Assembly (NCBI GenBank): GCA_965222225.1
Contig: CBDCTK010000002.1
Location: forward strand, 32,001 to 96,000
Origin: Candidatus Poribacteria bacterium
GTDB lineage: Bacteria > Poribacteria > WGA-4E > JAJDTR01
Direction of reading: 5' to 3'
Length of the DNA: 64,000 nucleotides
Positions within the stretch are counted from its first letter, which is position 1; every line of letters begins with the position of its first letter. Below are positions 14,895-62,058 of this stretch, one piece after another. The notes under the pieces were generated by a model. The model was not told the origin of the DNA. It worked only from the letters and a program-made list of their open reading frames with translations, and did no database searches. Position numbers and translations under genes: made by a program.

Positions 14895-14923
14895 CTATCG
14901 CGCTCTTTAATCAGTCGCTTGAT
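14895..14923 (-). repeat. Covarying 29-nt hairpin motif, copy 1
   Basis: + strand CTATCGCGCTCTTTAATCAGTCGCTTGAT, preceded by GGATCGCTATCGC and GGGATTTA stutters. Confidence 0.85.
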
Positions 14924-15025
14924 GGCCTCTGGCGCTTTCAAATGCTGGTGCGCAGTGTGCACCCTACAAATGTACAAAGTCGAACTTAGAAAACAAACCC
15001 TTATAGTAATCCGTGGAAATTTCTC

Positions 15026-15054
15026 TTGACAAAATGGAGGTGTTGCTATATACT
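15026..15054 (+). promoter_or_regulatory. sigma70 promoter of tRNA operon
   Basis: TTGACA, 17 nt, TATACT. Confidence 0.8.
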
Positions 15055-15080
15055 TTACGAGCTTATTAAGTTGTGGGTCC

Positions 15081-15157
15081 GGGCGGGTAGCTCAGTTGGC
15101 CAGAGCGACGGCCTTACAAGCCGTAGGTCACAGGTTCAAGCCCTGTCCCGCCTACCA
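15081..15157 (+). tRNA. tRNA-Val(UAC)
   Basis: Cloverleaf: acceptor GGGCGGG/CCCGCCT, anticodon arm ACGGC-CT TAC AA-GCCGT, T-loop TTCAAGC, encoded CCA. Confidence 0.97.
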
Positions 15158-15182
15158 ATAAATATTCAAACGTCATCCTATC

Positions 15183-15261
15183 GGATCCGTGGTGTAGCTT
15201 GGTTTAACACATCTGCCTGTCACGCAGAAGATCGCGGGTTCAAATCCCGTCGGGTCCGCCA
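15183..15261 (+). tRNA. tRNA-Asp(GUC)
   Basis: Acceptor GGATCCG/CGGGTCC, anticodon arm TCTGC-CT GTC AC-GCAGA, TTCAAAT, encoded CCA. Confidence 0.97.
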
Positions 15262-15276
15262 GTTTATATCTCACCT

Positions 15277-15318
15277 AAACCACAGGTTGTTTGGTCGTCA
15301 AACAGTCTGTGGTTTTTT
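15277..15318 (+). terminator. Intrinsic terminator after tRNAs
   Basis: AAACCACAGGTTGTTTG-loop-CAAACAGTCTGTGGTTT ending in a T run. Confidence 0.8.
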
Positions 15319-15374
15319 GTTATCTATACCTTTCTTGCTCGCATGACGATAGTCCTAGTACGGAGGTTGCCCTC

Positions 15375-16685
15375 GTGTTAGACCTAAAATTCATTCGCCG
15401 GAACCCTGATGCCATACGAACTATGCTCGACCAACGGAGGATGACTGCGCCTTTAAATCAGCTCCTTGAGATGGATAGTCAATGGCGCGAGACTGTCACC
15501 GGCGTAGAAAATGCCAGGAATCATCAGAATACCATCTCAAAAGGCATTGCGCAACTCAAGATGAACAAGCAGGATGCCTCCGAGCAAATTGCGGAGATGA
15601 AAGGACTCTCTCAGGAACTCAAGAGGTTGAGCAAGCAATCAAATGTCCTTAAGCAACAGATTAATGAGATGCTATTGACGATTCCGAACCTGCCGGATTC
15701 AAGTACTCCTGTTGGAGGCAGCGAGGAAGATAACATAGAAATCAAGCGATGGGGTAATCCGAGAACCTTCGATTTTGAATCAAGACCGCACTGGGAACTT
15801 GCGGAAGAATTGGATATTGTAGATTTTGGGCGGGGCACAAAAATCGCCGGAAGTAATTTTATACTGTTCAAAGGTCTTGGTGCGAGGTTAGAGCGAGGGT
15901 TGATTAACTTCATGATTGATTTGCACGTTTCCAAACACGGTTATACAGAGATTTCTCCGCCGTTTCTCGCCAATCGTAGAACAATGACCGGGACCGGACA
16001 ATTGCCGAAATTTGAAGAAGACATGTATCGCTGCGACCGGGACGAAGAGAATGAAGACAGCGATCTCTTTCTTATTCCAACTGCCGAGGTGCCTGTCACC
16101 AATATCTTCGCAGGGGAGATTTTGGACGCCGACGATCTTCCGATTTATTACGTCGCATACACGCCTTGTTTCCGGCGAGAAGCCGGCTCGTATGGACGGG
16201 AGACACGCGGGTTACAGCGCCTTCACCAGTTCGACAAAGTCGAAATGGTGAAGTTTACACTTCCCGAAAAATCTTACGATGAACATGAAGCCTTGTTGCG
16301 CGATGCCGAGGATATACTACAAGCCCTTGGTCTCCCCTACCGGGTCATTCAACACTGTTCGGTTGAATTGTCGTTCGCGGCTGCAAAATGTTACGACCTC
16401 GAACTTTGGTCGCCCGTAGATCAGAAGTTCAATCTAGAGATTTCTTCCTGCAGTAACTATGAATCGTTCCAAGCCCGACGCGCGAATATCCGGTTTCGTC
16501 GTCAACCGCATGCAAAAACCGAGTTTGTTCATACACTCAATGCGTCGGGCACTGCGTTGCCTCGATTGGTCATCGCGATTCTTGAGAATTATCAACAGGA
16601 GGATGGGACGATTCAGATACCGGAATTACTAAAGCCGTACATGGGCGGTATCGATCTAATCACGTCGGATAGTATATCAGAATAA
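15375..16685 (+). CDS. serS: Serine--tRNA ligase
   Basis: GGAGG RBS, GTG start MLDLKFIR; GQLPKF, LIPTAEVP, CFRREAGS, HQFDKVE, EISSCSN, HTLNASG. Confidence 0.97.
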   Translation: MLDLKFIRRNPDAIRTMLDQRRMTAPLNQLLEMDSQWRETVTGVENARNHQNTISKGIAQLKMNKQDASEQIAEMKGLSQELKRLSKQSNVLKQQINEMLLTIPNLPDSSTPVGGSEEDNIEIKRWGNPRTFDFESRPHWELAEELDIVDFGRGTKIAGSNFILFKGLGARLERGLINFMIDLHVSKHGYTEISPPFLANRRTMTGTGQLPKFEEDMYRCDRDEENEDSDLFLIPTAEVPVTNIFAGEILDADDLPIYYVAYTPCFRREAGSYGRETRGLQRLHQFDKVEMVKFTLPEKSYDEHEALLRDAEDILQALGLPYRVIQHCSVELSFAAAKCYDLELWSPVDQKFNLEISSCSNYESFQARRANIRFRRQPHAKTEFVHTLNASGTALPRLVIAILENYQQEDGTIQIPELLKPYMGGIDLITSDSISE

Positions 16686-16731
16686 AGAATTCCCCGATTT
16701 ACCAAGATTTTAATGTGATCTGGAGGAATGA

Positions 16732-17568
16732 ATGGACGAGGGCAAAGGTTACGCGAACCCCCAACTGCTAATCTCTCCCGAAACGCTAATCGACAGGCTA
16801 GGTGACGAATCGATTTGCGTTGCGGACACACGACCGACGCATGAGTACGCCGCTGGGCACATTCCCGGCGCGATCCACTTGGATCTGTATTCGCTTAGCT
16901 TGAATGACACGAGCGAGAGACCGTTCAAGTCGTTCATGTGGACGATTGCTTATCTCCTGCGTCAGCGCGGAGTTGATCCGACCAAGACGATCATTTGGTA
17001 TGAGGATATCTCGGGCATCTGTTCCGCAAGGGGATTTTGGTTCTGCGAATACCTTGGGCACGAAGATGTTCACGTGTTGGACGGCGGGTTCAATGCCTAC
17101 GTCGCGGCAGGTGGGCGCGTTAGCATCGAAGCAGACGGGCCCCCGGAAGTTCCGGCGTTTCCAGAGGCCCCGCAATCTCATACACATCTAGACGCGGATA
17201 CAATCCACGGATTGCTTGGAGACGCTGACTTCGTTGTCCTTGATACGCGCACCGACGACGAGCACTATGGGCGAGTTGCCCGCTCCGCTCGCGGCGGCGC
17301 GATTCCGGGGTCAATCCACATTGAGTGGCGCAACAATCTGGATGAAACGGGCGCGTTCAAGTCAGCTCCCGAGCTCCGCGAACTGTATCAATCCGCAGGG
17401 ATAACGCCCGAAAAACGTGTCATGTGTTACTGACAGGGCGGCTACCGCTCTTCCAACGCCTATCTGGCGTTGCGACTCCTAGGGTATCCGAGAGTCAGCA
17501 ATTATTTAGGGTCGTGGAAAGAGTGGGGAGATCGGCTGGATTTGCCGATCGAGATTCCAACCGCGTAA
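16732..17568 (+). CDS. Tandem-domain rhodanese/sulfurtransferase, probable selenoprotein (UGA 17431-17433 at the catalytic Cys position)
   Basis: GHIPGA motif; frame continues past TGA as CY-U-QGGYRS...NYLGSWKEW to TAA 17568, completing the rhodanese C-terminal signature. Confidence 0.85.
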
Positions 17569-17655
17569 TAGATAACAGAGATGAGGGCGTTGTATCTCGC
17601 TCACGGGTAGGGCTGGCAGGGAGTTCTATGGGGATTAGCTATCGCAGTAAGATTT

Positions 17656-17684
17656 CTATCGCATTCATTATTCGCTGGCGTGAT
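17656..17684 (-). repeat. Covarying hairpin motif, copy 2
   Basis: CTATCGCATTCATTATTCGCTGGCGTGAT then CCCGATCTAC; partial left-end stutters upstream. Confidence 0.8.
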
Positions 17685-17803
17685 CCCGATCTACGGGAAG
17701 GGGACACATACCGGGTTACGTAACGCAGTGGATTTGGCAATCCACTGCGAGCGATGATTGAGTCGCTTTAACTCACATTCTCCAGGTTGTTTGTCTCGCA
17801 AGA

Positions 17804-20773
17804 CTACTGCAAGATATCTTCGATCGCCAACGGATTGTCCGACATTTCTTGGTTTGCCGCTTCCAGTTTTTCTCTGCTTGATACCACGCATACCGCACCT
17901 TGATTCAGATTGGACTCAAGCAGTCCCAAAAGCGCACGTTTGACCGATTGAGGGGTACCGGACTTCAGACGCGCGTAGCGTTCCTCCCGTTTTTCAGGCG
18001 TTTGTCCAGTGAGATGACGGTGAAGCGCATCACTCGTTGCCTCGTTCGGTCGAATCGGCTGCTCATAGTTCTTCGCCGTGGCAATAATTGCACGGTCGAT
18101 GTCCGTTTGTGTCCACTGAGTTCCGTGAACAAAGTCGGTCACGCCGTTAAACACTTGGAGAGTTCGACTGATATGTGGGTCACTGTATGAACCGAGATAC
18201 AGCGTTCGACCAAGCGGGCTATACGTGAACCAGGCGCCGTAGGCGTTGCCCTTAAAACGTATCTCGTTCATAATGTAGTCGAGACGGACCATGTGGGCTC
18301 CAAGTGATAACAGTGTTTGATCCGGGTGTGAAGCGTGCTGCGCGGGGATAACTTGGGCACAGTGTGCGACTTGGATAGGCCCCGCCAATCCCTCGCGCGG
18401 CGGAGCTTCAAAGGGAGTGAATCCAACCGGTATCTCAGCTATTGTTTCGTCTCGCATTTTTCCCACCCAGTCCGACAACGTCCCAGAAACTGTTTTGAAA
18501 GCGGAATCGGAGCCAGTGAAACTAGCAGTTACCCGCCCGCGTACTAGCAGAAAATCTCGAATTTCATCAATCTTGCCCATCAGATCGCCACTTTGCTCAT
18601 CAAAATGAGCGTTCAACTCCTCGCTTAGCGAAAGTTGAGGCAAGCCGGAAACCTGCTCGTTCAAATAGCTCTCAGGATTTAGACCGCGCGCGGCGTGATA
18701 CATTGCAGTGCTGGAGCCGTTGTGCACCATATCCGTGCGGTATCTAGCCCGGCTCTGGACAAGCACATCGCGAAGTCGCTCCGAATCCCTAGGATCTAGG
18801 CTGAACAGTAAATCGTGAAACACACTTAACGCCGGAGCAATCTGATCGTCAAGCGTCTTAAGTTGAAAGCGCATATGTCGCAGAGACTGATTCCCGTTAG
18901 AGGCATGTGTCCCAAATCCGGGCGCGCATCCAATCCCGCCTGTAGAAGCGGCCACACGCCGCGCCATCTGCTCGTAGTTCACCCCCGCTGCACCCAACTT
19001 GCGGATAGCTTCAGCATAGCGCGGCAGATATTTCCAGAGATGTTCCGGCAGCCCCTGTAGGTTGAAATTCAGAATAAGATAGTTGATACCGTTTGCGAAG
19101 ACATCATTGTGCAGCAGTTCAACACCGTGGACACTTTCAATAGTCGTCGGGATATGAGTTAAGCGGTTGGGAAGGTCCGTGACTTTGAGTTGCGGGAGCT
19201 TTGCCAGTGCTTCGGGAGCGTTCGGCTCACTGTTGAGCCGGTCCAATTCCTCAGCATCCGCTGCAATCTGTTTCATCTCCGCGTCCGTGAGTTGCGATCG
19301 AACTTTTGCCATGCGATCGGCAAACTCGGTATCAATACGTCCCTGCATTTTCCGATCTGGCTTCACGACAGCGGTTAATCTATGTGGATTTTCCAGCAGT
19401 CTTTCCCGGATGAGCCGATTGAAAAGAGACGGCTCAGCCTCATATTTGCGTTTACAGGTTGACAGATGCTCTGCCATCGGCAGAAATGTCAGCGGATCCG
19501 TGCCGTAAATCCATGTTGAGATTACTCGATCCAGCATTTCCAAAGGAAACATCGATCCGATTTCGAGAAAATGATAAGCCGCCTGTTGGAATGCGGCTTC
19601 CACCAATTCTGGCTCAATCTCAATGTTAGCGACTTCGGAGAGCGTGTCGATCGCCAAGTTTGCGAAGGTATCAACACGGTCCGGTTCGCTGCCTTTCAAC
19701 CCAACGCGAAAGTTTCCTTCTAGCCCGACTGCTCCCGCTCCTGAATAGATTAGGTCCGCTCCGAGCTTCGATCCGATGACCGCCTTTTTCAACGGTGCTC
19801 CCTCATTACCCAGCAAAATCAGGCTCAGAATGTGCATCAACACGGCGTCTTCGGGATCGGTTGCGTCACCTGCTAGCCATTGAAGCATGAGGTACGTCTT
19901 TTCTGTGAGTGGTTCATCGGACGCTACGGGATAGGTGTCGGTCAGCGATCGAGGTTCTTCCCAGCGAGGCTGTCGAGTGATATTTACCCCCGGGGTTTGT
20001 CGAGCAAATCCTTTGAGTCTATCGGTAAGGAACGCCAAGTATTCAAGCGTCGGAATATTTCCATAGAAGAAGAAATAACCATTGCTGGGGTGATAATAAT
20101 CCTTGTGGAACTGCTTAAGAGCGGTGTACGTCAAATCGGGAATTGCGACCGGATCCCCACCGGATTCATTGCTATAAATCGTGTCCGGCAACAGTCCGCG
20201 CGTGACAGAACGGTACATGAGCGATTCGGGATCGGAGAATGCCCCTTTCATCTCATTGTAGACAATCCCGCTGACTGTCAGGTCGCCGGTGGGATTTGCA
20301 GGATCTGCTGGAGCGAGATGGTGACCTTCGCGTTTGAATGTCTGTTCCGTCAGCAACGGATGAAAGACAGCATCAAAATATACTTCGGCGAGATTGAAAA
20401 GATCTTGCTTCACATTGCTCGCCACCGGGTAGTAGGTGCAATCCCAACCGGTCATAGCGTTGATAAACGTCGCCATGCTCATCTTAATCATCTCGAAGAA
20501 CGGCTCTTTAACCGGATATCGGCGCGAGCCGGCAAGCACGCCGTGTTCAAGGATATGAGGCACCCCCGTGTCATCTGACGGCGGTGTGGGGAAGCTGATA
20601 GAGAATAGGTTCTCGGCATCGTCGGCGTGAAGATGCATCAGTCTTGCACCACTTGGCTCGTGTTCAATTTGATATGCTACGGCACGCAACTCTTCAAGTG
20701 GCGTGATTGCTTTTACCTCAAAATCGTCAATATGTTGTCCCACTTGCAACGTTACTTCTGGAGTTTCGGGCAT
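17804..20773 (-). CDS. M16C metallopeptidase (presequence protease/insulinase-like)
   Basis: Inverted zinc motif HILEH, FINAMT, VYNEMKG, IRFKGNAYG. Confidence 0.92.
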   Translation of the reverse strand: MPETPEVTLQVGQHIDDFEVKAITPLEELRAVAYQIEHEPSGARLMHLHADDAENLFSISFPTPPSDDTGVPHILEHGVLAGSRRYPVKEPFFEMIKMSMATFINAMTGWDCTYYPVASNVKQDLFNLAEVYFDAVFHPLLTEQTFKREGHHLAPADPANPTGDLTVSGIVYNEMKGAFSDPESLMYRSVTRGLLPDTIYSNESGGDPVAIPDLTYTALKQFHKDYYHPSNGYFFFYGNIPTLEYLAFLTDRLKGFARQTPGVNITRQPRWEEPRSLTDTYPVASDEPLTEKTYLMLQWLAGDATDPEDAVLMHILSLILLGNEGAPLKKAVIGSKLGADLIYSGAGAVGLEGNFRVGLKGSEPDRVDTFANLAIDTLSEVANIEIEPELVEAAFQQAAYHFLEIGSMFPLEMLDRVISTWIYGTDPLTFLPMAEHLSTCKRKYEAEPSLFNRLIRERLLENPHRLTAVVKPDRKMQGRIDTEFADRMAKVRSQLTDAEMKQIAADAEELDRLNSEPNAPEALAKLPQLKVTDLPNRLTHIPTTIESVHGVELLHNDVFANGINYLILNFNLQGLPEHLWKYLPRYAEAIRKLGAAGVNYEQMARRVAASTGGIGCAPGFGTHASNGNQSLRHMRFQLKTLDDQIAPALSVFHDLLFSLDPRDSERLRDVLVQSRARYRTDMVHNGSSTAMYHAARGLNPESYLNEQVSGLPQLSLSEELNAHFDEQSGDLMGKIDEIRDFLLVRGRVTASFTGSDSAFKTVSGTLSDWVGKMRDETIAEIPVGFTPFEAPPREGLAGPIQVAHCAQVIPAQHASHPDQTLLSLGAHMVRLDYIMNEIRFKGNAYGAWFTYSPLGRTLYLGSYSDPHISRTLQVFNGVTDFVHGTQWTQTDIDRAIIATAKNYEQPIRPNEATSDALHRHLTGQTPEKREERYARLKSGTPQSVKRALLGLLESNLNQGAVCVVSSREKLEAANQEMSDNPLAIEDILQ

Positions 20774-20809
20774 TCAAGTCTCCTTCTCTGATTGAATCGG
20801 ATTTTTTCT

Positions 20810-22081
20810 TTAGTTATCGGATACGGCGATTAGATGATTTCGCGTGCGCAAGAACAGAGTTCCTTCGGATATTGCCGGGGTTGCCATACAGATGTTTCCC
20901 ATAGCATTCGTGGCGAGAACTTTGAATTCTGGTCCCGCCTGAATGACTTAGATGCCACCAACTTCGCTCGTAAAGTAGATTTCGCCGTTAGCGGCGACCG
21001 GTGATGCCGTAAAGCCGGTAGCACCACGACCTAGACGTTTTTCATAAATGCGTTCACCCGTATCTGCTTGGTAGCATGACAGAACACCGTTGTCCCGGCA
21101 GCTATAAAGATAATCGCCGTAATCTATGGGAGTTTGCATATATGCTCCACCTGGGTCATCACTCCAAACGATATAGTTGCCGACATCAGGTTTTTTTCCG
21201 GGCGAAATATCTCCGCCTCCGCTAAGTTTCCACAGCCCTTGGCAGGGATCAAAATCATAGCCCCCGATATGTTTGTAGCCATTTACGACAACTTGGGTTT
21301 TGTCTTCTCGGCTTTGAATCGCCGGAGTGCACCACGTTGGCACTTCGTCGCGCGGTGTTTTCCACATGTATTCCCCATCTTCTATTCTGAATGAAGTTAT
21401 GATTGAACCTATTTGAACCTCGCACTGGACGATTATCACGTTTTCATGAATCGCGGGTGAACTTGCAAAACCCCATTGCGTCTCGGGTAAGTAAAAGAAT
21501 CCAGAGTCAAGGATACCCAAGTGACGCTTCCAAAGCACCGTCCCATCCATGTTATAACAATACAGCCCTTCGGAACCAAAAAAGGCAACCACGTATTTAC
21601 CATTTGTAGCCGATGTGCAGTTGGCGTGAGTCGTTTTCGGATATCGCTTTATCTTAGGTACAGCTTGGTGCACGGTTCGCTTCCATAGAATTTCCCCTGT
21701 GTTTTTATCGAGGCAATAAACAAGCCATTCATGTACGCTCTCGTCATCTACCGGCTCAACATCGCCATACAGCCCAACTTTCAGCGGTGTATCCATTTTT
21801 CCGCTGATTGCGGTGGTTATGTAGATGCGTTGATCTCAAATCACCGGACTGGAATGCCCTAGACCAGCAATTGGCGACTTCCACTTGATGTTCTCAGAAT
21901 TCTCTATGTGCGAGGAGGTTGGAGTTGGGAAATTCTCAGCCACACCGCTGGCGCCCGGTCCACGAAAGGTCGGCCAATGTACGCCCTGCGGCTCAGTAGC
22001 TGCCGCTGCCACACAGATGAAGATTATTTGAATGGCGGCAATAGGTACGACCATAGTTGCCGCCTTGAGTGGGGGTTTCAT
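20810..22081 (-). pseudogene. PQQ-like (BamB-type) beta-propeller pseudogene
   Basis: WPTFRGP, GLGHSSPVI then TGA 21836-21838 at the usual Trp position; second stop TAA 20948-20950; frame resumes VIQAGPEFKVLATN..ATPAIS to TAA 20810. Confidence 0.8.
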
Positions 22082-22252
22082 AATCCTAAACCAGTCCTAT
22101 GTTGTATTAGTCAACGAAACGGTTTACATGTCATTCTGTTCCCACGGATGGACGACCTCACCGGTCAAGGCTTGGATTTGGCACTCCAAGCCGAGCGGGA
22201 AAAAGCTATGAGCATCTAACATTTACGTGACCAATACAAAACCAGTCCCATG

Positions 22253-25012: not shown

Positions 25013-25151
25013 CCGGCGAGATTTACTAATTAGTTCACATTTTCTAGGTCTGCGACGTTTTCTATTATATGATAACTTGGGTGAGATATGAATCCTGATT
25101 TACGGATTCAGGCGTATTGTACCAGTTCGTGGGTCGGGCTGGAAGGGATCT

Positions 25152-25180
25152 CTATCGCGCTTCTTATTCAGTCGCTTGAT
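25152..25180 (-). repeat. Covarying hairpin motif, copy 3, inside a REP-like palindrome
   Basis: CTATCGCGCTTCTTATTCAGTCGCTTGAT flanked by GTGGGTCGGG (25129) and CCCGACCTAC (25181). Confidence 0.85.
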
Positions 25181-25244
25181 CCCGACCTACCAGAATAGGT
25201 AGCACATGGGTGACAAAGGTCCCTTGGTAGACTTGAGACGCGAA

Positions 25245-26921: not shown

Positions 26922-27250
26922 TGTGTAGTCCCTGATCAATTGTGAGGCAGCAAATCTCGGCGTTACGCATTAGCCAATTCGGTTGCCAAAGCCAACCGAC
27001 GTCCCTAAATGGTAGCAATTTTTTCACGGTGGGTCAACACGAATTTTGTGCTCATTTGCCCCCAGCTTTTCAAGGGGCGTGAATTGGCGGTGTTTTTAGA
27101 CTCCGCATCAGTGAGAAATGCTGACAATAGAGATCTCAAAGACGCGAGCTCCCCCACGCCTGAAAGATAACCTGTTTGTAAGTGATTAGTGGCTAGTGAA
27201 AACCCTGAAACCGTATGCGGGATAATGAATGGGATCTCTATCAGGATTTG

Positions 27251-27443
27251 CTATCGCCTTCGTTATCCACTCGTTTGATCGGTCATTATTCATTCCCTTG
27301 ATCGCCCAATATCCATTCGCTTGATACTATTCGGTCAGTTAATCGCTCCGTAATCAATCGGGGCAAGATGCCCCTCCCACCCGACGGAAATATGGAATGG
27401 TGGGCAGGGGAGTCCTATCGCACTCACTATCCATTCGCTTGAT
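27251..27443 (-). repeat. Cluster of hairpin motif copies 4 and 5 with head-to-tail shortened units
   Basis: Full copies 27251-27279 and 27415-27443; 23-nt units 27280-27302 and 27303-27325; partial 27326-27343. Confidence 0.85.
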
Positions 27444-27484
27444 TCCACCCGACATATAGCTGATTGATAACTCGTTTGAGGATT

Positions 27485-27510
27485 GTCGCGATTCGGAGAT
27501 CGCTCCTACA
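27485..27510 (-). repeat. GTAG-type REP palindrome
   Basis: Minus strand TGTAGGAGCGATCTCCGAATCGCGAC; related REP-like units near 14948, 27360 and 30475-30530. Confidence 0.6.
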
Positions 27511-27582
27511 GAGTTGCGTTATGCGGTCGTTTGATTGAAATTCGTAATATCAGATTATGCATTACGCATTGCGCAATCGTTT

Positions 27583-29806: not shown

Positions 29807-29979
29807 AATGAGAACTCCTTCGATCAGCGGTTAATGGACAGTGACAAGCAATAACGGAAGAGTCCTGACCGGCAAATTAAAACTGGATCGCTTTTGGACT
29901 CCAGTCGGCTTTACACGCGGTTGCTTGACCCACCACTGATTACGTTACACAATTCAGTTGTTCAGCGAAAAGATGGAAT

Positions 29980-30390: not shown

Positions 30391-30675
30391 ATTGTCTGGA
30401 TCGCTGTCTGAATCGCAGATTACACGGATTAAAGGATTTCGCGGATTGGGAGGGAGGGCGTACGGTAAGAGAGAAATCGGCGATCCCTCCCTACAACTGC
30501 TGAATCGCGACCGGGAGGTTGATCCTACAGAGGTCGGTTGTCCGACTACGATGAAGCAATCGAGGAACGGCAAGCTCTATCGGGATTGGATACCGCACCC
30601 AATTTCTCACATGGCACTCCTCTGGAGTGCGGAGATGGGACACATCTCTTATCTACAGATATACCACAGGATTTA

Positions 30676-30702
30676 CTATCGCGCTCCGTCCGGTCGCTTG
30701 AT
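30676..30702 (-). repeat. Hairpin motif copy 6 (2-nt deletion)
   Basis: CTATCGCGCTCCGTCCGGTCGCTTGAT then TCCCGCCTAC. Confidence 0.8.
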
Positions 30703-37121: not shown

Positions 37122-37279
37122 TATCACTCACAGCGCACTTCACATTCTATAAGGAAACTGCAGATAGTTTTGCGATATCGCTGCCCTAACCTACTCGCAG
37201 CAATCATCACCAAAGTTTGGCTCAATCAAGTACAGAATTTTCCGTGGGCTGACTATCGCAGTACTTGTCGAAACCGTTC

Positions 37280-37889
37280 ATCGCTCGTTACTCAGACGCT
37301 TGAACGCTATCAACTCGTTTGATTCCAAACATCATGGACTTTGCACATTGCACTCCGCTGGAGTGCAAGTCGAGACTATGGGTTGGCTATCGACATAGCA
37401 CTGCTCTGCAGTGCAAAGGCGTGGCTATCGATTGGCTAAAGACATTATAGATTTCTATGGGATTTCTATCGCGCTCCTTATTCAGTCGCTTGATCGCATT
37501 CTACAAATATGGTGCATGAATGCCATCTTGATTTGATAAGCGCAGCACGCGATTGCCTAGAGAAAACGCTCTTTGCAATGGACACTCATCGCATTGTATG
37601 ATAGCATAGGCTGAAGTGGAAGATTGGCCATAACCAAAGCGGCAGACCTACAAAAGATGGGGCACGCTAAGCAGACACCCATAGGGATCAAGTTAAGCGT
37701 TTTAGGGTGCATGTCACGTGGTTTCAATGTCGTAAACTGCTAATTTCCATGTAAACTTGGACGAGGAAATACCAATCCATTGATTGATGGGTGAGCCACA
37801 GAAGATGATTTGTGGCGCTCGTTTCCGTAAGGGCGTGGCCCGGTGCGGTTGGAGGGATCTCTATCGCCCTCGTTGTCCACTCGGTTGAT
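37280..37889 (-). repeat. Hairpin motif copies 7 (degenerate, 37280-37323), 8 (37466-37494) and 9 (37861-37889)
   Basis: CTATCGCGCTCCTTATTCAGTCGCTTGAT; CTATCGCCCTCGTTGTCCACTCGGTTGAT. Confidence 0.85.
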
Positions 37890-48339: not shown

Positions 48340-48646
48340 TGTTGGTTACGGACCTTAACACGTTAAGGTCGCATACTTCAGTTTATTGTCTTCTGTCGGA
48401 GTCGAATTAAGCTTGAGATTTGTGACGCCCCAAATTTCAATGAAAGTCGCAGGGGTATGTGCATATTGCTCCGATTGTGCAATCAAGTCTGATATCTGAT
48501 AATGGTGGTTTGAGGAGCAATTGTCGCTAGACTATTTTAACGAGCTTGCAAGTCAAATTATTCTAAAAGAACGTATGCCATTTTTCTATATTTGCAGTAC
48601 ATTAATGGCGTCAATCAAGCCTTCCCAATGCTGGGCAGGAAGATCT

Positions 48647-48869
48647 CTATCGCGGTTGTTATTCACTCCCTTGATCCCCGCCTACCGGGTTTGGTGTGCA
48701 GGGAATTGGTTGGTATGGGTTTTTCATACAGCATTATTGAAAACCATTATATGCAATATTATTCAAACGAAATGGTATTACGCATTAACAGAAGGTCGCG
48801 ATTCGGAGATTAGATTTCTATCGCATTCACTATTCGCTCATTTGATGGGTGATTATCCATTCGCTTGAT
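48647..48869 (-). repeat. Hairpin motif copies 10 (48647-48675) and 11 (48818-48846, plus unit to 48869)
   Basis: CTATCGCGGTTGTTATTCACTCCCTTGAT; CTATCGCATTCACTATTCGCTCATTTGAT. Confidence 0.85.
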
Positions 48870-49203
48870 CGTGCCTACTACTATTTCTAGCTTCAGTTGA
48901 ATGAGTGTTGGGTTTCACTATACGATTGAACTGCGTAAGTCCTATCCGTGTTACGCGGTCAGGATTCAAACTCCAGAACTCGAAGTGCTAAGCCGGCAAG
49001 ATCACAACGTTGAAGGAATGCAATCGTGTATGCCCAGTGACACATGGGGAGAGCGTACATCAAAGAGGCAATCTGCCGATGAATCGAGGTGACGTCAATC
49101 GTTTCGGTCCATTGCGTAAAAAAACGTGATGCACACGAAACAAAATATCTTTTTGCTAATCCCGCCATCCAATTATCCAACCAAATCCATCCGGCAGCCG
49201 AGC

Positions 49204-51696: not shown

Positions 51697-52073
51697 TAAG
51701 AGACTCTCCTTAATTCTCAGATTGATTGTATCGGTCGCGTATATGCAGGCGATTTTCGTGCCGTAATTTTTTTTTAGGACTTACGCAATTCAGTTTTTAG
51801 GAACGTAGAGCTGCGTTCCCAACGTACCTGATTCGTAGAAAATGACAAAGACGTAAGGGGTATTACGTACGTAGGGATCCCACAGGTATGTAGCAGCCAA
51901 CAATGAAAACATGAAAAAACGTCCTACAAATGACCGAAATTGGCTTTGCCACCGATTATTTAAACAGACTCTTATTGTGAAAGTCCTGTTCGGATGCAAT
52001 CAAGGTTCCATAACTATTACCCGACGAGATATGTGCGCATGACACAGGCCGGTCTCGCCGAAGCGACGCCGTC

Positions 52074-53633: not shown

Positions 53634-53844
53634 GATAAATCTCTTTCTGATTTTACGGTTGCATGATACAAGGCGTAACTTCAGACGCAGGTTCTCCGAT
53701 TCTTGCAACCTAAACCTACTTCAATACACGCATCCTGCGTGTCGCATGGAATGATCGTGCGCGGAGCGAGTAGAAATAGACGCCGCTCGCGACGCCTTCG
53801 CCGAATCGGTCTCTGCAGAGCCGGTTTTGCGGATTGGAAAGAAC

Positions 53845-55398: not shown

Positions 55399-55479
55399 GG
55401 TGATCTCCTTCCGATTTTACGGTTAGATAGTACGACGCGCCATTTCAGACGCGGTTTCTCATAATCTTGCATTCTTTAC

Positions 55480-57117
55480 CTATTTCAAAACGAGCATTCT
55501 GCGTGTTGCACGGAACGATCCCGCATGGAGTGTGTAGAAATAGACACCACTGGAGACGCCTTCTCCGAATCGATCCCTGCCGTCCCAATAGGCAGCGGTT
55601 TCGCGGTTAAGATAACTCCCGGCTTTTTGGCTTCCGAGATCTAACTCACGCATTAGTTGCCCTCGGACATTGTAGATGGATAAGGATACAGGGGCATCGG
55701 TCGCCAGATGATACGGCAGCCATGTCTCTGGGTTGAAGGGATTGGGGAAGTTTTGAAGCGGTGCAGTGCGCTTGACACTTCCCAATGTTGTCACCTGCAA
55801 TCCATTCGGATCGACAGCATACGGCGGAAGACCGAAGTTCTTTTCCGCGCTATAGACGTACGCCGCCGAACCGTTGCCAAATCCGGGCGCTCCCTCTGCT
55901 GCCGCGCCAGCGGTAACAATAACGGTGTCTCGGCTAATCGAGACCTCGGAACCGAAAACCTGGCCCATCACCGGATCATCGGGCACAATCTTCTCCGTTT
56001 CCTTCCAGACTCCATCAGTGTTTAAGAATGCATAGGCAGCCCCTGAGCCCAGTCCTTCCTCTTCATAGAGCGGAGCGCCAATGACAGCGATTTTTCCAGT
56101 GGTGGCAACACCGGCTCCGAAGTGATCGCCCGCTCGCGAATCGTCACCGACGAGTTTTGCCTGCTGTTTCCACGCGTTTCCTTCGCGCACGAAGACATAG
56201 GCGGCGCCTGCATCTTTTCCGCGTCCGGCATCGTTCAGTGTCGACCCCACAATAATGGTATCCCCATGGACGCCGACTGAAACTCCGAAACGGTCGCTCT
56301 TTGCAGCGTCTTCGGCTGTGATTTTTGCCTCCTCAACCCACCTCTCACCTTGGCGACCAAAGACGTACACGGCGCCGGAGAATCTGATGTCAGCGTGTGT
56401 GTGACCGGGTGCTCCGACGACAATAGTATCTGCCTCAATGGCAACAATCTCTCCGAAGCTGTCTGATCTTGCAGTGTCTCGCGCAACAAGCTTTGCTTGC
56501 TGTTTCCACGTATTCGCGTCTTTAATAAATACATACACGGAACCCGAGTTGGGACCGGCATCATCGTCCTTTGGTACCCCAATGACCGCAGTGGTGTCAT
56601 CGATGTCGACAGCCCAGCCGAAAGCGTCGCCCGATTCCGGGTCTTCGGCTAGAAGTTTCGCCTGCTGTTTCCAATTCTGCGCAGTCTTTCCAAAAACATA
56701 AGCTGCGCCGCCGTCTGCCGCAACACCGCCTTGATGGCCCGATGACGGCGACCCAACGATGGCATAGGTGGGGTCTCCGCGTCCCGGTGGACCGGTGATG
56801 GCGACCGCGAAGCCGAAGGAGGCCTGCCCAGGATTCTCTTTATCACGGTCGCTTCGAATAAGTTGGGCGGTCTCTTCCCACTTGTTGCCGGCCCGTGTGT
56901 AAATCTTGGCGAAGCCATCCGTGTTTAGAAAACCTACCGCATGGGCGCCAATGATAATGGTATCCCCGAGGATATCCGCGGGCATTCGTGCTTTATTGCG
57001 CATTCCGTCAGGGGCTCCAATCAGCTTTACTTCCTTCTGTGCATAGACTGTGTGGTTGACCGCTACTAGAGCAACACTCAAAACCACACTAATGAACGTG
57101 AACTGCAACGTTTTCAT
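55480..57117 (-). CDS. Secreted FG-GAP protein with FlgD/T9SS-like tail
   Basis: Same architecture. Confidence 0.9.
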   Translation of the reverse strand: MKTLQFTFISVVLSVALVAVNHTVYAQKEVKLIGAPDGMRNKARMPADILGDTIIIGAHAVGFLNTDGFAKIYTRAGNKWEETAQLIRSDRDKENPGQASFGFAVAITGPPGRGDPTYAIVGSPSSGHQGGVAADGGAAYVFGKTAQNWKQQAKLLAEDPESGDAFGWAVDIDDTTAVIGVPKDDDAGPNSGSVYVFIKDANTWKQQAKLVARDTARSDSFGEIVAIEADTIVVGAPGHTHADIRFSGAVYVFGRQGERWVEEAKITAEDAAKSDRFGVSVGVHGDTIIVGSTLNDAGRGKDAGAAYVFVREGNAWKQQAKLVGDDSRAGDHFGAGVATTGKIAVIGAPLYEEEGLGSGAAYAFLNTDGVWKETEKIVPDDPVMGQVFGSEVSISRDTVIVTAGAAAEGAPGFGNGSAAYVYSAEKNFGLPPYAVDPNGLQVTTLGSVKRTAPLQNFPNPFNPETWLPYHLATDAPVSLSIYNVRGQLMRELDLGSQKAGSYLNRETAAYWDGRDRFGEGVSSGVYFYTLHAGSFRATRRMLVLK

Positions 57118-57327
57118 GAGAATCTCCTTTCAATGCTAACGGCCCAGCCAAAATCTTTACATTTGCCCTGTACGTCATACGATAGCGGGTGTTCAATAGC
57201 GCACAGAGCGGCGAAAAATAATCTTGCTCTACGTTCCGTATCACAATGTTAATAGAGCACCTCCATAGCTTACGTCATTATATGCGATTATATGTGGAAT
57301 TCAGTCTCGCCGACCATTTTCGTTTTT

Positions 57328-58911
57328 CTATTTCAAGATGAGCATTTTACGCGTCGCTTGGAATTGGCCGGCCTCCAGGGAGTAGAAATAGACTCCAGTA
57401 GAAACAGTAGTCCCTAACTGGTCTAGCCCGTCCCAATATGCAGCAGTATCGCGGGTCAGATAAGCGCCCTCCTTTTGCACGCCGAGTGCCAACTCGTTTA
57501 TCAGTTGCCCTCGGACGTTGTGGATGCGAATCGAAACGGGAACATCGTTTGCCAAGTAATATGGAAACCACGTCTCCGGGTTGAATGGATTGGGGAAGTT
57601 CTGAAGCAACGCTGTCTGCTTTACCTTTCCCAACGTCGTCACCTGTAGTCCAAACGAATCAACACCGAATGGAGGCGTTCCAAAATCCTCAATGCTACTA
57701 TAGACAAACGCTGCTGCGCCGTCAGCCAATCCGGGTCCGCCCTTGGGTTTACTGTGTGCTGAGACAACCACGGTATTCTCGCTCATCGCCACCCAAAAGC
57801 CAAAAAAGCCGTCTTTTATAGGAATGAGAGGAACAACCTGATTCTTCTCTTCCCAAACGCCGCCTGTCAGGACGAAAGCGTAGGCTGCACCCGATGCGCG
57901 CTGACCTTCGTCCCGCGCTTTAGTGCCTAATACAGCGACTTTTCCGCTTGTGGCGACACCAAAGCCGAGTTGGTCTGCTTTCCGCGCGCTCTTGATTGTC
58001 AGCTTCGCCTCCTGCTTCCAGGTGCCTCCTTCCGGTAAGAATATATAAGCGGCACCGGTGTCAGCGCCACGATCAGTATCGTGCAACGGTGCCCCGACGA
58101 CAATCGTATCCCCGCTCAGGGCGACAGAATGGCCGAAACGGTCGCTTTGTGCTGCATCAGCGGCGGTGAGTTTAGCCTGTTCCACCCACGTCTCTCCCTG
58201 ACGCGCGAACACATAGACGGCACCGGCGAATCTTATCCCGTTATGCGTGTGCCCGGGCGCCCCGACGACGATGGTGTTCTTGCGAACAAAAACGACGTAC
58301 CCAAAGGCGTCGGACCGACCGGAATCTTCTGGAACGAGTTTTGCCTGTAGTTTCCAAGAGCCGTCTAATACAAACACATAAGCTGCGCCAGAGTTGTTAT
58401 CGGCTGCGTCGCTTTTTGGCGCCCCAACTACCGCCGTGATTCTATCCACAGAGACGGCATGTCCGAGATTGTCCGCCGCTCCGCCATCGTCGGCAGTGAG
58501 TTTGGCGCGCTGTTTCCAATCTCCTCCGCTCTTCGTGAAAATGTATGCGCCACCGGAGTCATCCGCTGTTCCATCGTGTTGCGGTGCGCCTACGATCGCG
58601 ATGTTCGCGCCGCCCCGACCAAGCGGACCGTTGACGGCAACCGAGAAGCCGAAGTTGTCTTTATCTCCATCCTTGGCGATAAGATCGAACTTCTCCTCCC
58701 ACTCCCCGCCATTACGTTCATAAATCTTCGCCAGACCGACGTGAGAGTGTACGCCGACAATCACTGTGCCGCGAAAGACCTCAGCACACATCTGTGCCTG
58801 GCCCTCGGCGTCATCCGCGATCAGCATTACTTCCTTCTCGGCGGGATAACCAACGGATGTCAGATGGATACAAAGAAAGGAACTGATCAGGATAAATCGA
58901 GCCGTTTTCAT
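57328..58911 (-). CDS. Secreted FG-GAP protein with FlgD/T9SS-like tail
   Basis: Same architecture. Confidence 0.9.
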   Translation of the reverse strand: MKTARFILISSFLCIHLTSVGYPAEKEVMLIADDAEGQAQMCAEVFRGTVIVGVHSHVGLAKIYERNGGEWEEKFDLIAKDGDKDNFGFSVAVNGPLGRGGANIAIVGAPQHDGTADDSGGAYIFTKSGGDWKQRAKLTADDGGAADNLGHAVSVDRITAVVGAPKSDAADNNSGAAYVFVLDGSWKLQAKLVPEDSGRSDAFGYVVFVRKNTIVVGAPGHTHNGIRFAGAVYVFARQGETWVEQAKLTAADAAQSDRFGHSVALSGDTIVVGAPLHDTDRGADTGAAYIFLPEGGTWKQEAKLTIKSARKADQLGFGVATSGKVAVLGTKARDEGQRASGAAYAFVLTGGVWEEKNQVVPLIPIKDGFFGFWVAMSENTVVVSAHSKPKGGPGLADGAAAFVYSSIEDFGTPPFGVDSFGLQVTTLGKVKQTALLQNFPNPFNPETWFPYYLANDVPVSIRIHNVRGQLINELALGVQKEGAYLTRDTAAYWDGLDQLGTTVSTGVYFYSLEAGQFQATRKMLILK

Positions 58912-58965
58912 GGTATTAGCCCTTTATGTCAAAGTGCCGAGTGTCGGACGAAAGTTTCAATCGCA

Positions 58966-59838
58966 CTAGAGTCCGCGCTTCACTTTCCCCCAAGTCGTTG
59001 TGAGTTTGTCCGTCGGTTCAACAGCAAATGAGCCGCGCGCGTTCTTGTCAATTTCGTCTGCAGTCAGTGCCCTATCATAGACACGGTAGATAGCGATGGA
59101 GCAGTTGCAGGTCCGAGCTTGCTCGGCTTGACTGTGAGAGAAGATTGCGTGCAGCGACATGTCATGCTTCTTGTTCCACTTGACACCCGTTCCAAACTTC
59201 GCACGTTGTTCGCCGTCTATATAGGTGGTAATTTCATCCCCGCTTTCAAAGACAAAATGCGCCCAGTGCCACTCACCGTTTCCAACCGTAAGTCTCGTCT
59301 TGCCGTTGCCTAAGTCTTCACGTGCCCCGATAGCACCCTGGGCGATACTAACATTCTGAAATTTCCCCTCGCCCCCATCGTCTAACCAGATTCGCACGTT
59401 TTGCACGCTTTCTCTTGGAGATGCCTGCAGTCCGACGAGGTGGTGTTCCTGTGCCAGCAAGCCGCCGTTGACCCGCACCAGCAAGCCCATGGTGAAATCT
59501 TCGAGATTTACGACTGGCGTGTTGTTCCCGGGTGCAGCATTACTGAATGTTGAACCGGATTTCTCGGCGGTGTACCATTTCGTGTTTTCCTTGAAACCGA
59601 TTTTCTTGATCTCAATGACGCCCTCTTCTAGCTTGGGTAGATCGCCGGTGTGTCCAAGTTCTCCACCCGCCTCCCCAGCGTTTCTCCAGGCTTTGTCATT
59701 TCTCCCTTGGTCGGTTTCGACCGGGTTGAAATAGAGGACAGCGCCGGGAACCGCTTGGGCAAATACTGTCGAGCATGTCGAGGCGAGAAGCAAGAGCACA
59801 CCGGCAACAGCGATAGTGGTTGGTATATATTTCAACAT
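58966..59838 (-). CDS. Secreted LamG/concanavalin-like protein with AVxPxxKLTTTWG tail
   Basis: Signal peptide from ATG 59838; WHWAHFV..TYIDG, RVYDRALTADEI; AVEPTDKLTTTWGKVK. Confidence 0.8.
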   Translation of the reverse strand: MLKYIPTTIAVAGVLLLLASTCSTVFAQAVPGAVLYFNPVETDQGRNDKAWRNAGEAGGELGHTGDLPKLEEGVIEIKKIGFKENTKWYTAEKSGSTFSNAAPGNNTPVVNLEDFTMGLLVRVNGGLLAQEHHLVGLQASPRESVQNVRIWLDDGGEGKFQNVSIAQGAIGAREDLGNGKTRLTVGNGEWHWAHFVFESGDEITTYIDGEQRAKFGTGVKWNKKHDMSLHAIFSHSQAEQARTCNCSIAIYRVYDRALTADEIDKNARGSFAVEPTDKLTTTWGKVKRGL

Positions 59839-60095
59839 TCTGAAATCCCCCATAAAGAGTTTATTGGTGCTTTGAGTCCATTGTAAATCATGCTGATAGT
59901 TTGTGTTGAAGGCTTTTTGTGGAACCTCCAAAAATGCAGACGCGAACATAGTGTAAGTTTCAGAAACCAAATTTGGGTTATGAGCGAAAAGTCAGCAGAG
60001 ATTGCGGCCATATTTGGATTCTTATTTCTACACCAAAACCATACGGTTGTCAAGACAATTTTGTGTCTTTCTTCGTTCTCTTTGTGTCAAAATTT

Positions 60096-60143
60096 TCCAA
60101 TACACAATTCCTCCAATACACAATTCCTCCAATACACAATTCC
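60096..60143 (+). repeat. Perfect 16-bp tandem repeat x3
   Basis: TCCAATACACAATTCC x3. Confidence 0.9.
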
Positions 60144-60283
60144 GTTGTAGTGACATTGACCTAATGGTCAAATCCTATTGCAACGCTTGACCCCCTTCGT
60201 ACCGGCGACTGAATGATTCTGCCAATCGCCAACCTTAAACCTCTACCGCTTCGGATAGTGTCAGATTACAGAACTTCACGGGA

Positions 60284-60312
60284 TTGACGCCGCCAAGCGA
60301 TTGCGGTATCAT
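60284..60312 (+). promoter_or_regulatory. sigma70-like promoter
   Basis: TTGACG, 17 nt, TATCAT. Confidence 0.55.
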
Positions 60313-60427
60313 TATGGCAGTCCACAATTAATACGGTAGTGCCTTTTCGGCTAGTCAACTTAATACTGCGTATATGCTGCCGTGGAAAGACAATCTTCTT
60401 TAAAACTAACTCCCAAGGAGAAATAGA

Positions 60428-61396
60428 ATGAATTTTAAGGAAAAACTGACATACACCGCGCTTGGCGGAATACTTGTTGTGATAGGTATGATATTGGCAT
60501 CGTTCCTTACCGACCTCAGTGTCGCACAGAATGAACAGAATGATATGTCCATCATGGATGATATGTCCATCATGGAATTCGACGAGATTAAGTGCCGCAG
60601 ACTAAGCATCGTTGATAATAAAGGAAAAACGCACGCCGTTCTGCAAAAGACTTTTGAACGCATGTCTGATACGGCAGATGTCATTCAGATTTACAATGAC
60701 GACCGTCGAATTGTCTACAGCGTAGGATTCGATCGACCGGGAAATGGCGTGTGGAAAGTCAACAACCGCCACGGGAAGAGAGTCATCATGTCTGGAGTGG
60801 AAAGTGATAGTGGTAACGGTTATCTGGAGGTAAAAGGTACAAACGGCGGCGTTGCCGCCGTCACCGCAGGAGACTATGGTGGAGCAATTCATCTATACCA
60901 GCAGGAGGGCGGTGAAGCGAAGGCTATCTTGGGACTCCAGCAAAGTGGAGGCGTCATGCAGGTAGAGGGCACAAATGGTGGCCAGGCGCGAGCTTATGTC
61001 GATGAGAATGGCGGCGGAGTCATGAGCGTAATCGGTCAAGATGGAGGGCCTTCCAAGGCGATGTTAGGTGTTCACGGCGAAACAGGTTTCGTACGGGCAG
61101 ATCGAACGGGGGGCGGTTCGTCTCAAATTCAGGCTGATCGAAACGGCGGCGCCATACAGCTATTCAATTCGCGGGATGGAACCCCGACCACAATGTTGGG
61201 GATCTATGGTGATGGCGGCGGTTTCCTGCGAGTTAAGGGCACAAACGGAGGCGCGGCTGAGGTCAAGGTCGATAAAAATGGCGGATCAGTTGGAGTGTTC
61301 GGGGTTGGAAGCACCGGATCTCAGGCGGCGTTAGGCGTCGGTAAGGATGGAACCGGTGCCGTTTGGATCTGGGACAGGAATGGCATCATGCAGTAG
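60428..61396 (+). CDS. Exported glycine-rich beta-repeat hypothetical protein
   Basis: AAGGAG RBS, N-terminal hydrophobic segment, recurring G.L.V.GTNGG.A units. Confidence 0.75.
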   Translation: MNFKEKLTYTALGGILVVIGMILASFLTDLSVAQNEQNDMSIMDDMSIMEFDEIKCRRLSIVDNKGKTHAVLQKTFERMSDTADVIQIYNDDRRIVYSVGFDRPGNGVWKVNNRHGKRVIMSGVESDSGNGYLEVKGTNGGVAAVTAGDYGGAIHLYQQEGGEAKAILGLQQSGGVMQVEGTNGGQARAYVDENGGGVMSVIGQDGGPSKAMLGVHGETGFVRADRTGGGSSQIQADRNGGAIQLFNSRDGTPTTMLGIYGDGGGFLRVKGTNGGAAEVKVDKNGGSVGVFGVGSTGSQAALGVGKDGTGAVWIWDRNGIMQ

Positions 61397-61993
61397 CAAT
61401 GGAAGGGCGGAAGAATGGAAGATTGGAAGCGTGGGAGATTTTCACCCACGCAGCCTCAATCCTCTGGAGCGAAAGATTTGAAGCTAACTGTTTGAAGCTA
61501 ACTGTTTGAAACTTAGAATCCGATTGCAAATTCTAGAAGTAGCTTGAAAAGTAGCTTGAAGAACGTCATTTTGTAGTCCTCCGAAATTTCATACTTTTCA
61601 TACTTTTCATACCAAACGGGCATTTTTAGCAGAGGCCAAAAAAGGGTGAAAACTCTTACTACGACTGGCTTCTTGGCAGTTTCGACATTAAAGCGGTTGA
61701 GACGTTGGTATGAAATTTTGGTATGAAACTTTAATTGCCATTCAAACCAGTTGAGATATTAGATTGACGTTTGGAGAAATGTCGTTTAGAGCCTGTTTAC
61801 ACGGTGGGCGACAAAGCCATTTTCGGTTATTTGGACTTCATGCACTTTCGAAGGTCCCATCTGCGATTTGGCAATCGAAGATTCACTCCGGGGCTTGATG
61901 GTCTATTCGTTAAGAGAATAGGTATAAGGAGTGCGTAATTTGACTGCTTGAAAGCACGACAACGTACTGCAGACAATCTCACATGGAGGATTT

Positions 61994-62058
61994 CTATCGC
62001 ACTCACTATTCGTTCGGTTGATTGTTATTCACTCGGTTAATCTATTCGGGTCTTTGAT
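61994..62058 (-). repeat. Hairpin motif copy 12 with two partial units
   Basis: CTATCGCACTCACTATTCGTTCGGTTGAT (61994-62022), then TGTTATTCACTCGGTTAAT and CTATTCGGGTCTTTGAT. Confidence 0.85.

Follow-up and report, generated by a model that had tools for sequence, protein, structure and literature searches.

The 64,000-nucleotide (nt) stretch of DNA described here, called the window, covers bases 32,001-96,000 of a 5.64-Mb contig from a Candidatus Poribacteria bacterium, a sponge symbiont, whose assembly consists of two contigs with 50% G+C. Dispersed over the window are copies of a ~35-nt element with a conserved core and paired, variable stem positions. The family is real, abundant, structurally unusual, and similar to repetitive extragenic palindromic (REP) elements.

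The element in the window and in the genome

A search of the window with the 29-nt core consensus (up to three mismatches) gives ten matches, all on the + strand, with core starts at 14895, 17656, 25152, 27251, 27415, 37466, 37861, 48647, 48818, and 61994. In 100 dinucleotide-preserving shuffles, an average of 0.00 matches is obtained. An original prediction, made from the letters of the window, had listed twelve loci; its two additional loci, at 30676 and 37280, are degenerate copies that are recognized by eye only. In start order, the ten copies contain 3+0+4+2+2+4+4+4+3+3 = 29 Watson-Crick pairs out of 40 by hand count, and a recount of the ten full copies reproduced the earlier figure exactly. 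The copies and arrays of the window are the following.

14889..14923, + strand: element copy of 35 nt (6-nt head and 29-nt core) with one mismatch to the consensus; the folding strand is the complement
17650..17684, + strand: element copy, the most diverged of the ten (two mismatches; 0/4 Watson-Crick pairs on the + strand)
25146..25180, + strand: element copy that splits another REP-type hairpin between its loop and its 3' arm (consensus match, flanks)
27245..27345, + strand: array of extra heads, one full copy (core 27251-27279), and three head-less hairpin modules (consensus match)
27409..27443, + strand: element copy (consensus match)
30669..30702, + strand: degenerate copy whose loop is shortened; CCCGCCTAC of a host REP comes next (sequence read)
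37279..37323, + strand: degenerate copy or module pair with several changes (sequence read)
37460..37494, + strand: element copy (consensus match)
37855..37889, + strand: element copy; the orthologous copy in the congener G019 has an identical core (consensus match, congener comparison)
48641..48675, + strand: element copy within a ~211-nt block (consensus match, congener comparison)
48812..48872, + strand: element copy and one extra module; the copy is common to G019 (consensus match, congener comparison)
61988..62022, + strand: element copy (consensus match)

The genome carries 1,091 copies, of which 1,088 lie on the chromosome (487 on the + and 601 on the - strand) and three on a 63-kb contig. 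The strict co-orientation claimed in the original prediction is thus a property of the window (10/10 on the + strand), and over the chromosome it amounts to a regional bias only. Conservation in the 1,088 chromosomal copies, to which the genome-wide counts below refer, extends 6-7 bases to the left of the core (GGGATYT) and one base to the right (C), beyond which it falls to background. The full element of ~35 nt consists of a 6-nt head and the 29-nt core and reads GGATYT-CTATCGC-NN-TC-NN-TATYC-NN-TC-NN-TTGAT on the + strand. Columns 8, 9, 12, 13, 19, 20, 23, and 24 are variable, and the other core columns are 85-99% one base, with the exception of column 17, which is C or T. The chromosomal copies comprise 645 distinct cores.

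Pairing and the folding strand

The variable columns are arranged symmetrically, and compensatory swaps between them had been proposed from the ten window copies. The genome-wide alignment bears this out. In a ranking of every pair of columns of a 69-nt frame by mutual information, the proposed pairs 12/20, 9/23, 8/24, and 13/19 take four of the top five places (1.13, 0.94, 0.75, and 0.41 bits, respectively), and the sole other pair in that range is formed by the adjacent head columns -4/-3 (0.42 bits). Pair 12/20 occurs as G-C in 469, A-T in 283, and C-G in 247 copies, and pair 9/23 as C-G in 524, T-A in 240, and G-C in 208. At pair 8/24, C-G (296), A-C (261), G-C (231), and A-T (226) are observed, and at pair 13/19, C-G (487), T-A (405), and C-A (151). 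The Watson-Crick fraction is 0.831 (83.1% of cells), compared with a mean of 0.382 and a maximum of 0.403 over 500 shuffles of the partners, in a test that takes the copies as independent although they are related; slid registers reach only 0.12-0.29. Altogether, 98 distinct fully paired stem combinations account for 890/1,088 copies. The many distinct cores and paired stems show that a few amplified masters do not account for the family. Throughout the genome, it is the unpaired bases that are conserved, as had been noted for the window.

The mismatches that are tolerated in the stems point to the strand that folds. Among the classes listed, A.C or C.A cells on the + strand, which correspond to G.T on the minus strand, number 480, compared with 79 G.T or T.G cells. 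The same asymmetry recurs in 151 copies from other Poribacteria assemblies (78 versus 12). Wobble-compatible mismatches are thus almost confined to the minus strand, which argues that the minus strand folds, and the single-strand pairing that had been assigned to this strand is supported both by the covariation and by the G.T-type mismatches. The folding strand reads ATCAA-NN-GA-NN-GRATA-NN-GA-NN-GCGATAG, and each 35-nt unit contains a single hairpin with covarying pairs. The AA/GC "bulge" and the outer ATC/GAT stem of the earlier drawing are invariant and hence give no covariation signal either way.

Insertion into other repeats

Excision of the 6-nt head and the 29-nt core, followed by joining of the flanks, recreates sequences that are found uninterrupted elsewhere in the genome; one rejoined junction, which lies in a GTAG-tagged REP, is present 25 times in uninterrupted form. 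The copy at 25146..25180 has the left flank ...GGGTCGGGCTGGAAG and the right flank CCCGACCTAC..., and near-identical uninterrupted versions of its host hairpin occur elsewhere in the genome. In the 21 reconstructions of empty sites that were recovered, no target duplication is seen, and the flanks, here and in the position profile, appear to favor G(C/G)G ahead of the 5' end of the minus strand. The sequence CCTAC is located within 40 nt downstream of 352/1,088 copies and upstream of 72, and the downstream CCTAC belongs to host REPs that are also found without an insertion. Host REPs therefore tend to have their GTAG strand co-linear with the folding strand of the insertion. Judging from these junctions, the element inserts precisely, without target duplication, and often into other REP hairpins.

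Orthologous spacers vary in content among five congeners. In its orthologous spacer, G019 lacks the ~211-nt block with the 48647 copy; it shares the 48818 copy, which there lies in an array with an extra head and extra modules. Both copies of the 48647/48818 spacer are absent from G010, G115, and G103, and the orthologous spacer of G031 has an unrelated copy on the other strand. In addition, homology between this genome and G019 breaks at or beside the motif-bearing spacers at 25.2, 27.1-27.5, and 30.6 kb. The ~211-nt composite block (window 48567-48778) holds the 48647 copy inside a GGCGGGG...CCCCGCC-type hairpin, and this host hairpin with an insertion recurs elsewhere in the genome. The block may be a larger mobile unit.

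Arrays and genomic context

With genes taken from crude longest open reading frame (ORF) calls made for this analysis, 856/1,088 copies (79%) are intergenic, although noncoding DNA makes up 17.6% of the chromosome. In the frame of the motif, the flanking genes are -- in 299, ++ in 256, -+ in 151, and +- in 150 cases, and the orientation of the element is thus unrelated to the direction of transcription.

Arrays are common. Extra GGATYTCTAT-like heads stack on the left of a copy, and head-less hairpin modules ending in TTGATC stack on its right; the three modules of the 27245..27345 array end in TTGATC, TTGAT, and TTAATC. At least one further TCNNTTGAT lies within 100 nt of 586/1,088 copies, and at least one extra head lies beside 425/1,088. 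Such tandem repetition of heads and modules beside the core, together with the difference in module number between the arrays of this genome and G019, would be expected if the family were not mobile and its arrays arose by local slippage or duplication of 11-12-nt and 23-24-nt units, as in short tandem repeats. This explanation is very unlikely. The copies are spread over 429 separate loci, and co-oriented neighbors within 150 nt have different stems in 209/215 cases, which means that they are not simple duplications. Together with these differing stems, the precise 35-nt insertions with intact empty sites largely refute it.

Distribution among Poribacteria

The distribution of the element was determined by searching 121 sampled Poribacteria genomes for an exact 30-nt pattern. 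The pattern is present in 8/8 genomes of the genus of the window (g1), counting this one, with 280-761 exact copies each, and in 4/4 genomes of a second genus from a neighboring family (g3), with 111-126 copies each. Three further genomes carry one or two copies each, giving a total of 15/121. The two largest other genera of the sample lack the pattern (0/32 and 0/45 genomes), and the reversed pattern, used as a control, has no match in any of the 121 genomes. A scan of one genome per species returned at least 101 stretches, and the 80 listed are all from Candidatus Poribacteria metagenome-assembled genomes; a cyanobacterial origin, to which the irregular GC skew had seemed to point, was rejected on this basis. 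As far as searched, the family is confined to two Poribacteria genera.

Orientation and replication skew

On the chromosome the copies are co-oriented regionally, and their orientation follows the raw GC skew in 100-kb windows with an odds ratio of 4.5. When the skews of + genes and - genes are averaged to balance gene direction and copies within 3 kb are collapsed into one locus, the 429 resulting loci give an odds ratio of 5.1-6.4 (p 1e-13 to 1e-17). The association is present in copies with and without a neighboring REP. dnaA is located at 2.61 Mb, at a change of the balanced skew from - to +, and to both sides of it the G-rich strand, presumably the leading one, is the strand that reads CTATCGC. 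Under the usual assumption that the leading strand is the G-rich one, the strand with the G.A hairpin is therefore the lagging-strand sequence. The skew changes sign again near 0.8, 3.2, 4.2-4.4, 4.6, and 5.5 Mb, which suggests that the chromosome carries many inversions or is rearranged or imperfectly assembled.

The original prediction had offered a strand-specific replication or recombination signal as one of two readings. A replication-type bias is present, so that both readings have some basis, but the bias is partial. As an explanation of the family, a strand-specific chromosomal signal that serves the host in replication, segregation, or repair, or as a site for a nucleoid protein, and that is kept in a fixed orientation to the movement of the fork, with mobility as its means of spread, is improbable. 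It would account for the odds ratio of 5-6, for the invariance of bases that are not palindromic, and for the common orientation of all copies in the window and in the syntenic stretches of G019 and G010. It would also fit the GATC sites at both ends of the element, which lie 31 nt apart in the 46% of copies that have C at position -1. Yet about a quarter to a third of the loci disagree with the skew, so that only about two thirds to three quarters follow it, 99/233 multi-copy clusters are mixed in orientation, and in G019 the orientation is mixed along 4.9 Mb. The motif is not found in most of the Poribacteria genera searched and is thus not a general requirement; both its partial skew and its presence in only 15/121 genomes of the phylum set it apart from polarity motifs of the KOPS or Chi type. 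Moreover, the GTAG-tagged REPs of the same genome (222 copies, up to three mismatches) are equally strongly biased, with the GTAG strand on the C-rich strand (odds ratio 0.14). This suggests that the bias stems from how REPs insert or are retained and does not mark a dedicated signal. A further repeat of this genome, REP-A, which is described below, is biased in the same direction but more weakly (odds ratio 5.1, p 0.02).

Candidate enzymes and REP-A

Five Y1_Tnp matches are found in the genome, at 2.56-3.73 Mb of the contig and hence outside 32-96 kb, in agreement with the earlier statement that no cognate enzyme is encoded in the window. The only intact Y1 gene that is bracketed by the motif encodes a protein of 157 amino acids (chromosome 3,080,255-3,080,728). 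The protein scores above the NCBIfam cut-off for IS200 (65.8 bits) and below that for RAYT (30.6 versus 80). It contains RYIKNQEAHH, which corresponds to the Y---Q--HH signature of TnpA-Y1 subclass 1.2. This subclass is described as low-copy and without insertion sequence (IS) ends, and no REP is mentioned for it (Quentin et al. 2018, PMC6006769); the candidate shares the signature of the subclass and would differ from its published description in having an associated REP. A motif copy is located within 200 nt of the gene in 6/6 g1 loci examined, and in this genome copies lie on both sides.

The repeat associated with this gene is REP-A (GCNCC-NNN-GGNGC-GNNANGTNTATAG), whose arrays flank the subclass-1.2 Y1 gene in 30/30 Poribacteria loci, in + orientation directly upstream and in - orientation directly downstream. 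Its stem covaries between genera (GCCCC/GGGGC, GCACC/GGTGC, and GCTCC/GGAGC). REP-A is present in 100/121 genomes, with up to 272 copies, and occurs in nearly the same genera as the Y1 gene. From this arrangement, REP-A and the subclass-1.2 gene look like a REPtron, although published accounts of this Y1 subclass give it none. Downstream of the Y1 gene, this genome, G010, and G019 have the motif inserted in the REP-A copy, which is empty in G031 and G115. REP-A and the 35-nt element both have CG-NN-AG directly 3' of the hairpin, followed by a tail that ends in ATAG. The link between element and enzyme that the insertions into REP-A and the common CG-NN-AG tail suggest is circumstantial.

The other Y1 genes were considered as well. 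A truncated RAYT at 3.56 Mb is bracketed by copies, but no copy lies within ~1.5 kb of the intact orthologues in G010, G103, and G019. The 247-amino acid gene, the gene with a 171-amino acid frame, and the TAG-broken gene were rejected as cognates on the grounds that their distributions do not fit. No TnpB/IS605 partners were found in the genome.

Proposed mechanism

In the reading that we consider likely, two Poribacteria genera harbor the element as a lineage-specific, REP-like miniature mobile element, which acts through a single-strand fold and is probably mobilized by a Y1 enzyme. Its complement, as a single strand and most likely as DNA, would form an irregular hairpin. In this hairpin, a tandem G.A/A.G internal loop would separate two helices of 2 bp each that are free in sequence, and a G-RAT-A loop would close it; it would be flanked by the invariant ATCAA on the 5' side and GCGATAG-ARATCC on the 3' side. 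A structure-specific enzyme for single-stranded DNA may cut and join the element at replication forks, and selection for recognition by this enzyme would preserve both the pairing of the stems and the identity of the unpaired bases. A Y1 HUH transposase of the genome is the probable enzyme, with the 157-amino acid TnpA-Y1 of subclass 1.2 as the best candidate. That some Y1 enzyme of the genome mobilizes the element has somewhat over one chance in two in our estimate, and that it is the subclass-1.2 enzyme, about one in three.

Several observations weigh against this mechanism. Regarding the enzyme, homologs of the 157-amino acid type occur in 76/121 genomes, including genera without the motif. 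The gene is broken by a stop in G115 and G082 and fragmentary in G017, and the search did not find it in two of the four g3 genomes, which have 111-119 copies. None of the five Y1 families is co-distributed with the motif over the 121 genomes. The motif copies beside the 157-amino acid gene are insertions into REP-A, and the adjacency to the Y1 gene may therefore reflect target preference alone. A search for Y1 HUH genes flanked by the motif, which had been proposed as a check, thus yields one intact gene, but with flanking copies that sit in another repeat. Being flanked by inverted copies is not specific either, since most of the 96 adjacent opposite-orientation pairs listed at distances of 250-2,500 nt bracket ordinary ORFs; the genes themselves come from the crude longest-ORF calls. 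Of the proposed family of REP/HUH-mobilized elements, the REP-like and insertion-polymorphic character is borne out, and mobilization by an HUH enzyme is the part that the missing co-distribution puts in doubt. Regarding the arrangement, neighbors less than 400 nt apart are mostly direct (286) and not inverted (84), unlike REPIN or bacterial interspersed mosaic element (BIME) doublets; the element forms direct repeats and head/module arrays instead. Regarding the strand, IS608-type elements are reported to insert in the lagging-strand template (PMC6006769), whereas the folding strand of the element is on the lagging-strand sequence.

The predicted stability of the fold is a further point on this side. 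With DNA nearest-neighbor parameters, the minus strands of the ten window copies have z-scores between -1.07 and +1.28 relative to shuffles, and the target fold has a mean energy of +1.2 kcal/mol over the 1,088 copies. The hairpin of the original prediction is thus supported by covariation and is not predicted to be stable alone with these energies; the pairing signal is evolutionary rather than thermodynamic. This may mean that sheared G.A stacks in DNA are undervalued by the energy model, that the fold is held by a protein, or that RNA is the relevant molecule. Tandem G.A pairs are favored in a pyrimidine-GA-purine context, which is present in ~75% of the copies according to the position profile.

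Computed with RNA parameters, the minimum-free-energy structure coincides with the target fold in 749/1,088 minus-strand copies, compared with 63/1,088 plus-strand copies and 0/1,088 shuffles. This result, the G.U-type nature of the mismatches tolerated on the minus strand, and the fact that tandem G.A loops are common in RNA motifs would suit a cis element in RNA, in which a tandem-G.A hairpin in transcripts is bound by a protein or acts on mRNA stability, processing, or termination. Such a role is nevertheless hard to credit and in our judgment quite improbable. Spacers between tandem genes would transcribe the folding sense in 299 and the nonfolding sense in 256 cases, and the orientation tracks the GC skew even when gene direction is balanced out. 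Furthermore, the copies lie inside other DNA repeats and differ between congeners. In Rfam, only two tRNAs reach the gathering score in the window, and in the region 27150-27500 a search at E<=1 gives a single chance-level match (E 0.88); no curated family matches the motif within these searches, one of the checks that the original prediction had proposed.

An extension of the favored mobile-element reading, which we regard as doubtful, is that the Poribacteria harbor a third kind of REPtron, in which a TnpA-Y1 of subclass 1.2 serves both REP-A and the 35-nt element. Both substrates would consist of a hairpin followed by CG-NN-AG, with REP-A being widespread and the 35-nt element being restricted to two genera. 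The fold of the latter would be made largely of non-Watson-Crick G.A pairs, leaving the stems free to vary. The placement of its folding strand on the lagging-strand sequence, which is opposite to the IS608 rule and common to the GTAG REPs of the genome, would then result either from insertion via the nascent lagging strand or from selective excision of copies in the lagging-strand template.

To our knowledge, almost all REP elements described so far come from Proteobacteria and have GTAG tags and inverted doublets. The present family indicates that a much smaller and largely non-Watson-Crick fold can sustain the REP lifestyle. Its roughly 1,000 natural variants amount to a natural SELEX (systematic evolution of ligands by exponential enrichment) for an enzyme that binds single-stranded DNA, in which the positions that pair and those that stay fixed can be read. 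The family also provides a clear replication-linked orientation bias for REP-type repeats and suggests what an orphan class of Y1 HUH proteins may do. Should the link to the enzyme fail, it is simply another selfish repeat family.

Comparison with known systems

Literature searches on Poribacteria repeats, covering titles and the beginnings of abstracts, gave no published description of the element. It is most readily compared with the group-2 REP/BIME of Escherichia coli, with which it shares the short (20-40 nt), intergenic, high-copy, and hairpin-forming character and Y1 HUH genes in the genome. In both, conserved unpaired or mismatched bases outweigh the sequence of the stem. E. coli TnpA-REP requires the mismatches A12A13-G26C27 (AA/GC) in the REP (PMC8266576). 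The minus strand of the element can be drawn with AA opposite GC in its lower stem, and recognition of a specific strand would be a second likeness to the REP/RAYT system. The differences from classic REPs are that the element has the feet ATCAA and GCGATAG and no GTAG or CGTC tag, and that its helices are only 2+2 bp around the tandem G.A loop. It also differs from the RAYT system in that none of the five Y1 families appears to be a dedicated RAYT flanked by the element and in that its orientation is biased with respect to replication-type skew.

The IS200/IS605 family (IS608, ISDra2) resembles the element in its folded single strand, the lack of a target duplication at the reconstructed sites, an apparent preference for a short sequence, and the replication-linked bias. 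The pentanucleotide TTGAT is the insertion target of ISDra2, and the + strand of the element ends in this sequence; this may be a coincidence. Members of the IS family have left-end and right-end hairpins, whereas the element has one, and no copy contains a transposase.

Weak, non-GTAG structures that were recognized by eye and have up to ~600 genomic copies are described as flanking TnpA-Y1 genes of class 3 and subclass 2.6 (PMC6006769). The element is likewise weak, non-GTAG, and high-copy; the CnGA foot given there for class 3 is not seen in the element. GCGNAGC/GCGNNAGC sequences are reported to form very stable DNA mini-hairpins with a sheared G.A pair (PMC13037366). Their C-G-(loop)-A-G form recurs in CGATAG of the element, in its C/T-G-RAT-A-G/A loop, and in the CG-NN-AG tail of REP-A, with the difference that the element has only one closing C.G pair. 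A kink-turn consists of a three-nucleotide bulge and then tandem G.A pairs between two helices. The element differs from it in that its G.A pairs lie in a symmetric 2x2 loop and no bulge is present.

Other features

The GATC ends of copies with C at -1 (e.g., window 25146-25181) lie in a GGATC...GATCC terminal inverted repeat, and tandem modules contribute more GATC sites, which are spaced by 12 or 23-24 nt. Between motif copies, the region 37335-37425 of the window contains two hairpin repeats of another family (...TTGCACTCCGCTGGAGTGCAA... and ...AGCACTGCTCTGCAGTGCAAAGG...). A hairpin repeat of the TTGCACTCCGCTGGAGTGCAA type is also found in the G019 version of the 27.2-kb spacer. Promoters of single-subunit (phage) polymerases, which are suggested by ACTCACTAT-like runs, are excluded by the chromosomal nature of the window, the lack of a phage match, and the 1,091 copies.

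The RAYT-like gene of 247 amino acids (chromosome 2,563,965-2,564,705) is 99% identical in G019, and its flanking genes are 84-93% identical. Elsewhere in the 121 genomes only a fragment was found, in G115, and a recent transfer of the gene is possible on the basis of these identities. Two tRNA genes are located at window positions 15081-15258, ~160 nt downstream of the 14895 copy, and parts of the stretch occur as contigs in six RNA runs.

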